A stretch of 64,000 nt of DNA. Origin: Eledone cirrhosa (lineage: Eukaryota). Positions within the stretch are counted from its first letter, which is position 1. Each line of letters opens with the position of its first letter. Made by a program: the position numbers and the translations under genes. The notes beneath the pieces were generated by a model that saw only the letters and a list, made by a program, of their open reading frames with translations, was not told the origin of the DNA and searched no databases. The DNA lies in assembly GCA_964016885.1 (NCBI GenBank), contig OZ024740.1, positions 295,926,001 through 295,990,000 of the forward strand, in the 5' to 3' direction. Below, in pieces: positions 29,948 through 36,400 of this stretch.

Positions 29948-30159
29948 CTAGACATGAAAAATGCGCAAGCTCAAAAGTGCCACAGAATGTTATAATAAAC
30001 CTTCAAAAGTGTGGGACTAGAGTTGTTGCTAAAAAATATTGTAATCATTATATATCGTACATTCTGTGGCATCCTTTATAAAAATAGCTTAAACTAACGA
30101 AGCCTTTATTTTTACGCTATTTCACTTAGTTAATTCTTAGAGTGTAACATATAAAAATA
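29948..30159. repeat. Left arm of a 212-bp inverted repeat (outer CTAG terminus of the insertion)
   Basis: Reverse complement of 30691-30902. One mismatch seen (AAACTAACG vs AAACCAACG). Confidence 0.97.
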
Positions 30160-30197
30160 TGATTTACAACTATAAAATAAATTAATTAATATAATAA

Positions 30198-30285
30198 CAG
30201 AGCTGCGGAGCTGAAATTTAGGAAATAATGGAGTATCGGATCCTGAGTTGGAGCCAGTCAATTTTTGACCGACTCCGCAGCCCTG
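30198..30285. mobile_element. 88-bp hAT-like MITE remnant
   Basis: 13-bp TIRs CAGAGCTGCGGAG (30198-30210) and CTCCGCAGCCCTG (30273-30285) match 12/13. Flanking 8-mers TATAATAA (30190-30197) and TATAATAC (30286-30293) match 7/8. CAG...CTG ends with an 8-bp TSD are typical of hAT elements. Confidence 0.72.
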
Positions 30286-30690
30286 TATAATACATTTCAT
30301 ATTAAAGTTATTAATAAACCTATTTTACACTTCATGCAAATTACCACGAGATATTGATATTAGATATAAGATACAGCGCAATATCTACAGCTGTAAAAGT
30401 ACGAAAGCGAAGTAATAATAAGTGGCTTAAGGTAATTCCAATATGAAAGTTTGTAGTGATAAAAATTTGATAATGCAATACGATTGTTAATATTATAGTT
30501 CTATGAAAATGTAACAATAGATAACTAAATTATTTTACTATTAGTATATTTAAGAAATTATCATTATAGATTTGATCGTTCATATAAGCATCATATTAAG
30601 TTTCAACACAATTATTTTGTTACTATGAGTATATGATAATAATATTACGTAATTATTTATAGCTGTTATTACATTAAACATAGATGTATT

Positions 30691-30902
30691 TATTTTTATA
30701 TGTTACACTCTAAGAATTAACTAAGTGAAATAGCGTAAAAATAAAGGCTTCGTTGGTTTAAGCTATTTTTATAAAGGATGCCACAGAATGTACGATATAT
30801 AATGATTACAATATTTTTTAGCAACAACTCTAGTCCCACACTTTTGAAGGTTTATTATAACATTCTGTGGCACTTTTGAGCTTGCGCATTTTTCATGTCT
30901 AG
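30691..30902. repeat. Right arm of the 212-bp inverted repeat (internal inverted copy ending ...CATGTCTAG followed by T)
   Basis: TATTTTTATATGTTACACTC...GCGCATTTTTCATGTCTAG is the reverse complement of 29948-30159. The spacer is 531 bp (30160-30690). Confidence 0.97.
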
Positions 30903-31057
30903 TTTAATATTTTTTTAAGGCAACGCTTGTAATAACTCTAGTTAAACAGGATATATATTAATAATAAATTATCGTTGTAATGTAATTAGATTATGTAATT
31001 GTTATTATAAATTATCTTATAAATATTAGTGTAAGATGTATAAAAATATTTTCAGAC

Positions 31058-31096
31058 TTTTAATATAAACAACTACAAAAAACAATCAATATTAAA
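31058..31096 (+). repeat. 39-bp dispersed direct repeat, copy 1
   Basis: TTTTAATATAAACAACTACAAAAAACAATCAATATTAAA matches 32136-32174 at 38/39. Confidence 0.9.
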
Positions 31097-31460
31097 TCAA
31101 TATATTATACATAATAGAAAACATAAAATATACAATACAAAAACAAAATATTTACATACATTTGCAATTATCAGTGTATATACATTTTCTTTATATTCCC
31201 TGAGCAAATTAATAAGATTTGTTTTTATTGTACATAATTTGATGACTTGTTGGAGTGTATTAAAAGATAGCAACAATTTGTGATTAAATTGTTATCTTAA
31301 GCAACTCACTTTTTAATAGTTGTTGGCTGAGCGAAATTGTAAAAGCCTATGAGCAAATATAAAAAAAAATACACAAACAACATTTCCTTGTGTTATTACA
31401 ACATTAGATAAAATAATTGAGCAATGTCGTTATATTTTGCTCTTATTGCACATTAATAGT

Positions 31461-31635
31461 GTTTCTATTTTTCGGCACAAATCCATTACGGCAGTCCATT
31501 ACTGGTACTTTATTTTATCGAATTAGTAAGTATGAAAGTCGAAGTTAACCTCGGCAGGATTTGAACTTAGAATGCAAAGGACCATAACAATACTGCAAAG
31601 CATGGTGTATGACGCTCTACCAATACTTGTGTTGA
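31461..31635 (-). mobile_element. Diverged tRNA-derived SINE copy (resembles octopus SINE families, from memory)
   Basis: The minus strand has a tRNA-like A-box region TTGGTAGAGCG (~31613-31623), a B-box GTTCAAATCC (31557-31566), then GAGGTTAACTTCGACTTTCAT...TCGATAAAATAAAGTACCAGT. The last part is shared with a second copy at 32425-32470. Outer boundaries are approximate. Confidence 0.7.
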
Positions 31636-32020
31636 GCTGGTCATTAATTTATGGTGGTCGTGCGTGAAGTAGAGCAATCGCTAGTTGAAATATTATGAAC
31701 AAAACATTTTTATTTGCCGAAGAACATATTTTCAATACTGTTTGTGAATGTGACGAAGGAAATACATTCTGATATGGAACAGTGTACAAAGTGTGTCTGT
31801 GAATAACATAATGTTACCTCATGTTGTTGTCAAGACATAATGGATTTCGTTTATCCAGTTAGAAGATGAAACCTAGCCATCTCGGATTAGTTATATTTCA
31901 TGCCATGTGTAAACGTGTTTGAGGATAGCAAAATATGCGCGTTAATTATAATAATTAGTTAATAATATTACAAAATATACCTAATTAAACTCTTTGCTTG
32001 AAATTTTATCATTCTTCGTT

Positions 32021-32056
<36 letters not shown>
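32021..32056 (+). repeat. Compound microsatellite (TA)10(GA)8
   Basis: Read directly from the sequence. Confidence 0.97.
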
Positions 32057-32135
32057 CATTTATCTAGTCCTTCGCTCAAGATTAATCTATAAGTTTAGAT
32101 GTTTGCCTTCGTTTAAGTAAATATTACAGTAAGAT

Positions 32136-32174
32136 TTTTAATATAAACAACTACAAAAAACAATTAATATTAAA
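32136..32174 (+). repeat. 39-bp dispersed direct repeat, copy 2
   Basis: TTTTAATATAAACAACTACAAAAAACAATTAATATTAAA, offset 1,078 bp from copy 1. Confidence 0.9.
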
Positions 32175-32424
32175 ACGAAAAAATTATCAATGATAAAAGA
32201 AGCGGATGCAACTTTTTTTTTTATAAAGTTATATTCCTGTTTCTTTAAAGAACATTTCATTTTTGTTCTATTGTAGGCGAAATAATGCAATGGTTTAATA
32301 GGGAAGATATAACTTACGAATTATGTCTCTAACCGTGTAACGCTTTTTAAGTAGATAACTACAATTGAAAATACTAAAGAAATGGAACCAACAATTCAAT
32401 TTGAAAGTCGTCTAGTGACAGTGT

Positions 32425-32470
32425 ATTACTGGTACTTTATTTTATCGACCCCGTAACGATGAAAGGCAAA
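32425..32470 (-). mobile_element. Second, truncated fragment of the same SINE (central domain only)
   Basis: ATTACTGGTACTTTATTTTATCGA is identical to 31498-31521 and is followed by CCCCGTAACGATGAAAGGCAAA. The Pol III box region is missing. Confidence 0.7.
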
Positions 32471-32498
32471 AATGCAAATGCTTAAAATTTAAATTGCC

Positions 32499-32604
32499 TT
32501 AATTCTATCGTCTGCTGTTTCATTAAAGGGAGATTATCGTCTGTATTTAATTCTATCGTCTACTGTTCCACTAAACAGATATACCTCCACTATCGTCTCT
32601 ATTT
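32499..32604 (+). repeat. Imperfect tandem duplication of about 50 bp containing four TATCGTCT motifs
   Basis: TTAATTCTATCGTCTGCTGTTTCATTAAA...TATCGTCTGTATTT is followed by AATTCTATCGTCTACTGTTCCACTAAA...TATCGTCTCTATTT. Confidence 0.8.
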
Positions 32605-32831
32605 ATACATTTTAACTTATAACTTATACACATTTGATTTGAAATATTTTATCTAGTCCCCCCTCTCAATATTATGATGATTTCTTTCGAATGAAACAGT
32701 TCTAGTCCTGTAGAAGCCATTTATATATATAATTGAACTGAGTTAAAAATTCACAATATTTATAATTAAATAAGCTCATATATATATGTGTGTATTTATC
32801 TGTTTATTGTATTATATATAATGTGTGTATA

Positions 32832-32870
32832 TACAGGATGTCCCCCAAAAATATATACACACTTCAACAG
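32832..32870 (+). mobile_element. Possible solitary Tc1/mariner-like terminal repeat
   Basis: TA followed by CAGGATGTCCCCCAAAAATATATACACACTT resembles the TA|CAGGGTGTCCC...AAA starts of Tc1/mariner-superfamily TIRs. It sits in a TA-rich tract. No partner end found. Confidence 0.4.
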
Positions 32871-32968
32871 CATTCTAATAACTATTGCCTGTACAGGTAA
32901 TCAAAGTGTCAATCGAATGTTAGTTTCGTGTTTTAACAGTACAAATTTACAATACACACATAAAACCA

Positions 32969-33018
32969 GTGTATATACATACATGAATGTGTATACACAT
33001 ACATGAATGTGTATATAC
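32969..33018 (+). repeat. 20-bp minisatellite, 2.5 copies, within a TA/CA low-complexity tract
   Basis: GTGTATATACATACATGAAT GTGTATACACATACATGAAT GTGTATATAC. Confidence 0.9.
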
Positions 33019-33084
33019 AATATATATGTATATATATATAGACACATATATTCACGGTGCAACGGTACATTAAAATATAGATGC

Positions 33085-33320
33085 GGGAGAGGGGGGTGTA
33101 TATATAGGGGCGCTGGGGATAAAGGAGTGTAAAGCGTGTGTAATTGATATATTGAAGGAGAGGAGCGTGCAGCGATAGAGTAACAAATATATAGAGAGGG
33201 GGGAGAGATGGTATTGAAGGGGAGGAGTGCAAAGCGAAAGAGTAAGAGATATATATATAGAGACGGAACAGATAGAGAGAAACAGGCGTAAGTAACAGTG
33301 GAAGAGATATAGAGAGAGGT
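33085..33320 (+). repeat. Purine-rich region with degenerate tandem units of about 60 bp
   Basis: TATTGAAGGAGAGGAGCGTGCAGCGATAGAGTAA (~33150) and TATTGAAGGGGAGGAGTGCAAAGCGAAAGAGTAA (~33212), plus a partial AAGGAGTGTAAAGCG (~33122). Strong G/A strand bias. Confidence 0.7.
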
Positions 33321-33408
33321 ACTCTGATTGGTTGAAAATTAGCCAATGACATACGATCACCACCACCACGGCTATCCCCGAAACATTTTTAAAGAAGCTA
33401 GGCATATA

Positions 33409-33462
33409 TGTTAGAACACGAAAAGTGAACATTCTGTGTTTCACACTTTTCGTGTTCTAACA
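33409..33462. other. Terminal hairpin: perfect 19-bp stem and 16-nt loop, 2 nt from the TC end of the insertion
   Basis: TGTTAGAACACGAAAAGTG (33409-33427) pairs with CACTTTTCGTGTTCTAACA (33444-33462). Confidence 0.95.
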
Positions 33463-33464
33463 GA

Positions 33465-36400
33465 TAGACAGTGAGTGTACTGAGAATATATTATATAGAC
33501 AGTGAGTGTAATGAGAATATTTCATATAGACAGTGAATGTACCTAACAATATATTATATAGACAGTGAGTGTACTGAGAGTATATTATATAGACAGTGAG
33601 TGTACTGAGAATATATTATATAGACAGTGAGTGTACCTAAGAATATATTATATAGACAGTGAGTGTATCTAAGATCTAAGAATATATTATATAGACAGTG
33701 AGTGTACCTAAGAATATATTATATAGACAGTGAGTGTACCTAAGAATATATTATATAGACAGTGAGTGTACCTAAGAATATATTATATAGACAGTGAGTG
33801 TACCTAAGAATATATTATATAGACAGTGAGTGTACCTAAGAATATATTATATAGACAGCGAGTGTACCTAAAATATATTATATAGACAGTGAGTGTACAT
33901 AAGAATATATTATATAGACAGTGACTGTACCTACCAATATATTATATAGATAGTGAATGTACCTAACAATATATTATATAGACAGTGAGTGTACCTAAGA
34001 ATATATTATATAGACAGTTAATGTATCTAACAATATATTATATAGACAGTGAGTGTACTGAGAATATATTATATAGACAGTGAGTGTAATGAGAATATAT
34101 TATATAGACAGTGAATGTATCTAACAATATATTATATAGACAGTGAGTGTACTGAGAGTATATTATATAGACAGTGAGTGTACTGAGAATATATTATATA
34201 GACAGTGAGTGTACCTAAGAATATATTACATAGACAGTGAGTGTACCTAAGAATATATTATATAGACAGTGAGTGTACCTAAGAATATATTATATAGACA
34301 GTGAGTGTACTGAGAATATATTATATAGAGAGTGAGTGTACCTAAGAATATATTATATAGACAGTGAGTGTACCTAAGAATATATTATATAGACAGTGAG
34401 AGTACCTGAGAATATACTATATAGACAGTGAGTGTACCTAAGAATATATTATAGAGACAGTGAGTGTACCTTAGAATATATTATATAGACAGTGAGTGTA
34501 CCTTAGAATATATTATATAGACAGTGAGTGTACCAAATAATATATTATATAGACAGTGAGTCTACCTAAGAATATATTATATAGATAGTGAGTGTATCTA
34601 AGAATATATTATATAGACAGTGAGTGTATCTAAGAATATATTATATGGACAGTGAGTGTACCTAAGAATATATTATATAGATAGTAAGTGTACCTAAGAA
34701 TATATTATATAGACAGTGAGTGTACCTAAGCATATATTATATAGACAGGAGTGTACCTGAGAATATATTATATAGACAGTGAGTGTATCTAAGATCTAAG
34801 TATATATTATATAGACAGTGAGTTTACTGAGAATATATTATATAGACAGCCAGTGTACCTAAGCATATATTATATAGACAGTGAGTGTACCCGAGAATAT
34901 ATATAGACAGTGAGTGTACCTAAGAATATATTATATAGACAGTGAGTGTATCTAAGAATATATTATATAGACAGTGAGTGTACATAAGAATATATTATAT
35001 AGACAGTGAGTGTACCTAAGATATATTATATAGACAGTGAGTGTACCTAACAATATATTATATAGACAGTGAGTGTACCTAAGAATATATTATATAGACA
35101 GTGAGTGTACCTAAGAATATATTATATAGACAGTGAGTGTACCTAAGAATATATTATATAGGTAGTGAGTGTACCTAAGAATATATTATATAGACAGTGA
35201 ATGTACCTATGAATATATTATATAGATAGTGAGTGTACCTCAGAATATATTATATAGACAGTGAGTGTATCTAAGAATATATTATATAGACAGTGAGTGT
35301 ACCTATGAATATATTATATAGACAGTGACTGTACCTAAGAATATATTATATAGACAGTGAGTGTACCTAAGAATATATTATATAGACAGTGAATGTACCT
35401 AAGATTATATTATATAGACAGTGACTGTACCTAAGAATATATTATATAGACAGTGAGTGTACCTAAGATTATATTATATAGACAGTGACTGTACCTAAGA
35501 ATATATTATATAGACAGTGAGTGTACCTAAGAATATATTACATAGACAGTGAGTGTACCTAAGAATATATTATATAGACAGTGAATGTATCTAACAATAT
35601 ATTATATAGACAGTGAGTGTACTGAGAATATATTATATAGACAGTGAGTGTAATGAGAATATTTCATATAGACAGTGAATGTACCTAACAATATATTATA
35701 TAGACAGTGAGTGTACTGAGAGTATATTATATAGACAGTGAGTGTACTGAGAATATATTATATAGACAGTGAGTGTACCTAAGTATATATTATATAGACA
35801 GTGAGTGTATCTAAGATCTAAGAATATATTATATAGACAGTGAGTGTACCTAAGAATATATTATATAGACAGTGAGTGTACCTAAGAATATATTATATAG
35901 ACAGTGAGTGTACCTAAGAATATATTATATAGACAGTGAGTGTACCTAAGAATATATTATATAGACAGCGAGTGTACCTAAAACATATTATATAGACAGT
36001 GAGTGTACATAAGAATATATTATATAGACAGTGACTGTACCTACCAATATATTATATAGATAGTGAATGTACCTAACAATATATTATATAGACAGTGAGT
36101 GTACCTAAGAATATATTATATAGACAGTTAATGTATCTAACAATATATTATATAGACAGTGAGTGTACTGAGAATATATTATATAGACAGTGAGTGTAAT
36201 GAGAATATATTATATAGACAGTGAATGTATCTAACAATATATTATATAGACAGTGAGTGTACTGAGAGTATATTATATAGACAGAGAGTGTACTGAGAAT
36301 ATATTATATAGACAGTGAGTGTACCTAAGAATATATTACATAGACAGTGAGTGTACCTAAGAATATATTATATAGACAGTGAGTGTACCTAAGAATATAT

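Follow-up and report, generated by a model that had tools for sequence, protein, structure and literature searches.

A Helitron interrupts a satellite array

The window, the whole 64,000-nt stretch of DNA analysed here, is a 32-bp satellite array (plus strand, about 2,000 units, 87% matches) that runs from position 1 to 29947, resumes at 33465–64000 and is broken by one insertion at 29948–33464. This 3,517-bp insertion, the only one in the satellite within the window, is a whole non-autonomous Helitron on the minus strand, inserted between A and T of the host target; along its own strand it reads A|TCTG, a 19-bp hairpin, 3.4 kb of further sequence and then CTAG|T. When joined, the flanks match the satellite at 118 intact positions of the window, which represent the empty site; this joining restores the satellite, so the element lacks a target-site duplication (TSD). 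The 5′ terminus TC (33463–33464, minus strand) directly follows the target A and is followed by the 5′ hairpin (33409–33462, minus strand; 19-bp stem, z = −8.0), the loop of which holds the 5′ copy of the element's asymmetric terminal inverted repeat (ATIR), ACAGAATGTT (33428–33437). The body (30927–33408, minus strand) is non-coding and contains microsatellites and short repeats, the RepHel region being deleted near element position 1522; 11 long open reading frames from the genome's own HLE1 loci gave no tblastn match to it. Window positions 31492–31627 and 32420–32470 are pieces of a short interspersed repeat that is abundant and appears in many other loci.

The 3′ end of the element, a member of what we call family A, is a 955-bp module of two inverted 212-bp arms at 29948–30159 and 30691–30902, 531 bp apart and differing by one mismatch, just as a preliminary description of this DNA had reported. 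The mismatch, at arm position 148 (window 30095 versus 30755), is private to the window copy, since C stands there in every other family-A arm listed. The outer arm (29948–30159, minus strand) is the true right (3′) end, CTAG|T, and the sole mobile end of the module; the 3′ copy of the 10-bp ATIR, AACATTCTGT on the element strand, lies 34 nt before that end at 29982–29991 (minus strand). A strong 3′ hairpin is lacking, with the last 45 nt folding at −1.0 kcal/mol and the sequence before the 3′ end of the window element scoring z = −0.3. The inner arm (30691–30902, minus strand) is an inverted copy of the terminal 212 bp that begins exactly at CTAG on the element strand, and the junction upstream of it, GCGTTGCCTTAAAAAAATATTAAA|CTAG (30903–30926, minus strand), is conserved and recognisable in sister families despite arms that can barely be aligned. 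The 531-bp loop (30160–30690) carries inherited subfamily variants and an 88-bp MITE remnant at 30198–30285, with 17-bp imperfect terminal inverted repeats (TIRs) and 8-bp TSD-like flanks TATAATAA / TATAATAC; this remnant may be hAT-like, and it is already present in older subfamilies. The module region folds at z = −37.7 relative to 20 shuffles, in agreement with the proposal that a single strand could form a 212-bp duplex.

Both arm copies end at CTAG followed by T, with the flanks described earlier, CTAG|TATAATAT after the outer copy and CTAG|TTTAATAT after the inner one, and without a TSD. The outer flank is target site, with T first in 83 of 84 family-A modules and the consensus TATATATA, whereas the inner flank is fixed element sequence; the similarity of context that had been noted is therefore partly chance. 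The inverted arrangement is not an assembly artefact, as many loci carry inverted pairs and, in each of the public runs X1 and X2, contigs run from body to inner arm, from inner arm to spacer and from spacer to outer arm with 0–2 differences, one junction at a time, none crossing the whole module.

Copies across the genome

Exact-pattern matching over the 3.0-Gb genome gives 1,373 occurrences of the arm's first 20 nt (control, 0) and 669 of the family-A 5′ 21-mer, and the 3,517-bp non-autonomous family comprises roughly 680 copies, alike at about 99%. Full-length family-A copies are 3.4–6.3 kb long and mostly 95–99% alike; all 34 have A|TCTG...CTAG|T ends and no TSD, and A precedes the 5′ end in 67 of 67 family-A 5′ flanks. 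The inversion is far from unique to the window, as 46 of the first 54 arm loci listed are inverted pairs, mostly of 955 bp. Over the initial 182 Mb of contig C1, an exact TC/hairpin end lies at most 8 kb from 48 of 54 arm loci, and an arm is present for 49 of 51 family-A 5′ ends. Inner arms run on into one and the same element body (16/16) and outer arms abut unrelated flanks (14/14). This 5′-end linkage, together with constant inner and variable outer flanks, identifies the 955-bp unit, on sequence grounds, as the 3′ part of a young and abundant Helitron and as neither a TIR element nor a second working terminus. Among the three explanations initially offered, a working terminus on each strand is not supported by the flanks, an independent TIR or foldback element fails because the unit never has its own TSD or two variable flanks, and duplication of a Helitron 3′ end in inverted form is the one that holds.

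We examined 95 loci (the window, the 54 and a further 40), of which 84 carry a full family-A module, 7 lack a complete module, 3 have a module of another length and 1 belongs to an older group. Of the 84 modules, 83 end in CTAG, 83 have T next and 48 have identical arms. Three single-arm family-A copies were seen, each with its own breakpoint and a proper CTAG|T end, and no amplified single-arm subfamily was found among the copies examined. An excess of mutations in outer over inner arms in the first 54 loci disappeared in the 84 modules (28 versus 22, P = 0.48). The head-to-tail junction CTAG|TC has no match genome-wide, which lends no support to tandem rolling-circle arrays and has no bearing on free circles. 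One copy (L093/L094) has its first 77 bp duplicated in tandem, giving two 5′ termini, as described for FoHelis.

Autonomous partners and their protein

Ten canonical RepHel loci recovered in a PF14214 search were rejected as the partner of family A; two of the ten lie near independent insertions of a second family, B. A search of the genome for DUF6570 gave 54 matches, one of them inside a locus with the family-A 5′ end at its start. Nine autonomous family-A loci, picked for long frames, have the family-A 5′ end in all nine cases and both arms in eight. These elements are 9.5–14.1 kb long and >99% alike, with reading frames of 2,087–2,245 aa, of which a frame of 2,230 aa, uninterrupted, is present in five of the nine. 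The encoded protein contains DUF6570 (PF20209, E = 1.8e-17), Rep (PF14214, E = 1.6e-28), PIF1 (PF05970, E = 3.8e-24) and a C-terminal UCH domain (E = 1.3e-11), and its HUH, YxxSYxxK (Y2) and Walker A/B motifs are intact in all nine copies; a C-terminal apurinic endonuclease gave no Pfam match, the C terminus being UCH.

Compared with 32 database proteins, the family-A RepHel shows 26–43% identity over the Rep region, and most of these proteins have DUF6570, a marker of HLE2 (PMC11417382). A quick tree, which carries a long-branch warning and includes no named HLE2 references, places the A Rep outside the genome's HLE1 group, the branch between it and five Reps of that group having SH-aLRT 100. 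Its motif reads GAPH and not the GLPH of HLE1. The HLE2 rule combines an F/Y-x-R triad before Rep motif 2 with S between G and P (PMC4067079); the A Rep has the triad, as FWR, and A instead of S, as do most of the 27 database homologues listed. The module lies on the strand of the open reading frame, downstream of the RepHel gene, and starts about 3.3 kb past the stop codon. We conclude that the 955-bp unit is almost certainly an HLE2 3′ module, and, judged by sequence comparison, the window Helitron is an internal-deletion derivative of a ~12.8-kb autonomous HLE2 element. Between the RepHel stop codon and the module, autonomous and long non-autonomous copies carry a stretch of ~500 bp (seen in L329) that looks to us like a decayed non-LTR reverse-transcriptase tail.

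Ends of mixed type

The element is a Helitron of HLE2 type by its protein, with ends most like those of proto-Helentrons (HLE2-reverse) except for TC in place of TT; it is neither a canonical HLE1 element nor a strict Helentron. A Rep (HUH and Y2) fused to PIF1 and the lack of a TSD are those of Helitrons. With HLE1 it shares 5′ TC, 3′ CTRR and A|T insertion but not the 16–20-nt hairpin ~11 nt before the 3′ end. With HLE2 it shares DUF6570 but not T|T insertion or a 3′ stem-loop, its insertion being A|T and its hairpin 5′, and its ATIRs of 10 bp (families A and B) and 13 bp (S1, a sister family) compare with an HLE2 range of 11–18 nt. The 3′ CTAG, A|T target, 5′ stem-loop and HLE2 protein are all proto-Helentron-like, and the 5′ TC is not. 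Two TIRs serving as mobile ends inside a TSD, which define a TIR or foldback element, are absent. The termini mix classes, combining A|TC...CTAG|T, which is HLE1-like, with a 5′ hairpin, an ATIR and no 3′ hairpin, which is FoHeli/proto-Helentron-like.

Among described elements, Proto-Helentron-Pi/HelenPi572 of Phytophthora infestans likewise has an HLE2-type RepHel that lacks an endonuclease, 3′ CTAG, TSD-free A|T insertion, a 5′ stem-loop and short inverted repeats (PMC4067079, PMC11417382). Likened here by description, it differs in starting with TT rather than TC and in having its left repeat 3.6 kb inside, and the relevant sections of these reports describe no long inverted duplicate of the 3′ end (PMC4067079, PMC11417382). 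It is reported from Phytophthora only and as absent from 404 other genomes (PMC4067079, PMC11417382). The HELIANO survey, as far as its main account goes, found such a mix only in Phytophthora (PMC11417382); in the present case, where the genome is large, an HLE2 protein goes with ends of the HLE1-like form A|TC...CTAG|T. FoHelis of Fusarium oxysporum also have a 5′ hairpin and an asymmetric inverted repeat with its 3′ copy 20–40 bp from the end; FoHeli1/2 likewise start with TC, and the HLE2-reverse FoHeli3–5 likewise lack a 3′ hairpin (PMC5148889). FoHelis end in ATTTT or CTCCTGT, however, and their duplicated termini are direct 5′ copies rather than an inverted 3′ copy (PMC5148889). HLE2 subgroups c/d of HELIANO have the DUF6570 marker and the UCH domain in common with family A, although HLE2 is described there with T|T insertion and a 3′ stem-loop (PMC11417382). 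Helitron1/Helraiser shares 5′ TC, 3′ CTAG, the A|T target and the lack of a TSD (PMC4778049); family A differs from it in having no hairpin 11 nt before the end, a hairpin at the 5′ end and a Rep outside the genome's own HLE1 group. Canonical Helitron families of this genome have the same TATATA target preference. The lepidopteran Hel-2 is likewise non-autonomous with 5′ TC, 3′ CTAG and subterminal inverted repeats, but has a 3′ stem-loop and short repeats, and a 200-bp inverted terminus does not appear in the pertinent parts of its description (PMC4344730). In the full-text literature searched, no Helitron was found whose own 3′ end recurs inside it as a long inverted copy; Repbase, Dfam and the HELIANO supplements could hold such a family.

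The same design in sister families

The preliminary description did not notice that autonomous HLE2 elements and diverged sisters share the module and that its arms evolve in concert. Family B is older and, at 1.2 kb, has lost almost everything else; it has 864 arm matches, and its module measures 444 bp with arms of 181 bp. A seeming reading frame in this family gave no tblastn match and was rejected, and three B copies with identical flanks at 5.5-kb spacing (L130–L132) are a local tandem duplication. Other subfamilies have arms of 117–216 bp and loops in either orientation. The sister HLE2 family S1 has a RepHel 50% identical to that of A and an arm that aligns with the A arm over at most 21 nt, yet it starts with TC and a hairpin and ends in 190-bp arms that are 97.9% alike; its 96 matches form 47 inverted pairs and 2 solo arms. 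A third type, S2, has the terminus CTGG and an inner arm that begins with CCAG (821 matches; 36 inverted pairs, or 72 matches, among the first 100).

In all four families, A, B, S1 and S2, the inner arm is flush with the terminal base and follows a similar junction, TTGCCTT-AAAAA...A. The ATIR is 10 bp long in A and B, with its 3′ copy 34 nt from the end, and 13 bp long in S1 (30 nt), and the 5′ stem differs in sequence in B and S1 yet still pairs. The last 45 nt fold at −1.0 (A), −3.3 (B) and −1.2 (S1) kcal/mol, versus −5.8 to −9.6 kcal/mol for three canonical HLE1 ends of the same genome. Six further stretches behind DUF6570 matches contain a complete sister module (two), a lone inner arm (one) or none (three). 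Among metagenome relatives (33 loci), no module was seen in the 12 inspected, most of which end near the open reading frame and are too short. Sharing by sister families, concerted arms and the absence of an amplified single-arm subfamily indicate that, in the one genome from which every family examined comes, the module is an old, conserved part of the HLE2 lineage and probably functional. In a separate observation, a family-A 5′ end lies 2 nt from an S2 arm terminus, on the same strand as the terminal motif (L113, G000:C1:74306457-74306502), showing that these elements insert beside each other's ends.

Symmetry of the arms and its exceptions

Over arm positions 1–127, all five majority differences between A and B are present on both arms, and an intermediate group of five loci has the position-7 change on both arms without the changes at 31 and 105. 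Between S1 and S2, 11 differences in the first 100 columns, including the CTAG/CTGG terminus, lie on both arms and 3 are arm-specific. No majority difference between arms was found within A or within B. Inserted B copies have ~3% private changes per arm, and changes shared within a copy number 10 against 4.7 expected (permutation test, P = 0.015). As inserted copies are poorly homogenised, the symmetry of the source lineages suggests an effect of the transposition cycle or of selection. In A, variants present in at least three copies occur at 0 of 424 arm sites and 21 of 1,531 other sites (P = 0.013). Variants seen twice in A are not depleted in arms (7/424 versus 10/1,531) and one outer-only variant, 141C>G, was inherited in two related A copies, so the arms are not rebuilt at every jump.

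Structural variants were also seen. The loop is flipped in 1 of 84 A modules and in one deleted copy (L044), and in 3 of 39 B modules, with 2 ambiguous and two of the flipped copies, 35 kb apart, probably related. Two lengthenings of the inner arm, one in A and one in another subfamily, added 75–80 bp copied from beside the outer arm. Truncation breakpoints in A (4 of 6 cases) and B (7 of 9) lie at most 25 nt from a stem–loop junction (post hoc test on hand-picked cases, P about 0.002 and 0.001, respectively), a clustering that stem formation in vivo would predict. Neither palindromic dimers nor long extensions past the outer CTAG turned up. Genome-wide, the outer CTAG precedes an 8-nt match to the inner junction in three family-A copies only, all in the discovery set, the three new matches in that search being mutated inner arms; templated extension after the outer CTAG (4 of 147 flanks versus 0 of 130 controls, P = 0.13) was accordingly dropped, with no new case outside contig C1.

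What the module may do

The module bears on how Helitron single strands gain a second strand and on how HLE2 elements find their ends, and we hold with good confidence that function maintains it. By extension from Helitron biology, RepHel would nick at TC, displace one strand and cut after CTAG (PMC4778049), following the Helraiser cycle of left-end nick, strand displacement, cut after CTAG and circle formation (PMC4778049). In the displaced single strand the arms would pair into a 212-bp stem that ends exactly at the cut, where repair or template switching could copy changes between arms, from outer to inner in the cases that can be polarised; copies without an inner arm would not amplify. 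Pairing at this stage would account for symmetry in the source lineage rather than in inserted copies, for arm extension, for rare flips and for breaks at the loop base. The module itself probably arose by an ancient opposite-strand self-insertion or by fold-back of the 3′ end.

Our best guess at the module's function, a tentative one drawn from the analysis as a whole, is self-priming: the snapped-back CTAG 3′-OH, paired on a template that continues through the body, would prime the second strand much as in parvoviruses. Self-priming would account for the flush start of the inner arm, the joint CTAG/CTGG change and the conserved junction. The 3′ inverted repeat is an established second-strand primer in AAV (PMC11575299), and if the mechanism holds, the AAV/parvovirus ITR would be alike in its terminal fold-back, its single-stranded replicon driven by an HUH Rep and its flip/flop isomers (PMC11575299), although the structure here is at one end only, has a loop of 80–740 nt, flips rarely and belongs to no virus. 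It counts against self-priming that flips in A and B are rare, compared with the random flip/flop of parvoviral terminal resolution, that extended or dimeric products did not turn up and the hint of templated flanks failed out of sample, that in the Helraiser model the 3′-OH closes the circle and is not a primer (PMC4778049), and that single-arm copies ending at CTAG|T may have inserted as such. It is possible, if rather doubtful, that this HLE2 branch has gone further and exchanged the plain rolling circle for a hairpin-primed cycle, with an obligatory inverted 3′ copy whose junction re-creates the CTAG|T nick site.

A different role, which we regard as unlikely, is that the stem is a signal for end recognition or termination, zipping up behind the helicase until pairing stops at CTAG and so standing in for the short 3′ hairpin. 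The weak folding of the last 45 nt in A, B and S1 beside the canonical HLE1 ends of this genome and the CTAG end of 83 of 84 modules fit such a signal; HUH nucleases, against this, cut single strands, the ATIR could serve instead, and single-arm copies keep their CTAG|T end. A hairpin does play that role in Helraiser (PMC4778049), but FoHeli3–5 have no 3′ hairpin either, and the sections of PMC5148889 that we cite do not ascribe such a module to them.

The module could also be a neutral relic of an ancient opposite-strand self-insertion, with chromosomal gene conversion or recombination keeping the arms alike and flipping the loop, a view to which we likewise give little credence. Self-insertion in opposite orientation has been proposed for FoHelis (PMC5148889), the inner junction resembles an A|T target, A–B arm divergence is no slower than that of the adjacent body (5/127 versus 5/202), flips are commoner in the older family and within-copy sharing shows a small excess. 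Yet four families spanning 50% protein divergence retain the module, as do derivatives with heavy deletions, the junction has changed less than the arms, arm loss occurs but was never seen amplified, and conversion in place touches ~3% of variants although A and B show no majority arm difference. On TIR homogenisation, the consulted portion of PMC4168063 held nothing relevant. An action at the level of RNA or chromatin, through a hairpin transcript, small RNAs and self-limiting silencing in place of DNA replication, is very improbable: the module lies on the coding strand downstream of RepHel and would form a 212-bp duplex if transcribed, but its start lies about 3.3 kb beyond the stop codon, non-coding derivatives keep it, and such an action would need neither flush terminal alignment nor the CTAG/CTGG co-change. 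That a captured TIR or foldback transposon with CTAG ends supplies the terminus has next to no probability, since for all its long near-perfect inverted arms around an AT-rich spacer the unit is never free-standing, shows one constant (16/16) and one variable (14/14) flank and no TSD, varies in arm length and spacer between subfamilies as the inner junction stays, and holds the Helitron's own ATIR in its arm.

The elements represent an HLE2 lineage with an undescribed and conserved end design, whereas Helraiser, an experimental Helitron system, is HLE1 (PMC4778049). As the genome supplies intact copies that are 99% alike, together with deletion variants and flipped ones, the role of each part can be assayed, and a hairpin-primed cycle, if true, would be directly testable with the several intact, near-identical autonomous copies. 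Annotation tools would class the 955-bp unit as a MITE, and long inverted repeats of this kind, which number well over a thousand, could be fragile sites.

Other repeats were encountered in the same genome. Near-identical HLE1 Rep matches recur every ~100–130 kb on C20 (3.5–5.2 Mb), C27 (13–15.5 Mb), C16 and C19 of G000, which suggests very large tandem repeats that carry a Helitron. One locus, L353, holds five frames of 287–547 aa, one with a PGYNYCGP motif, presumably as in viral or Polinton phospholipase-like proteins. Another, L346, contains a 337-bp near-perfect palindrome (1402–1738, 92.6%), possibly a further fold-back family; its repeat also flanks one family-A copy (flanks of L046/L102), where it provides the empty A|T site.
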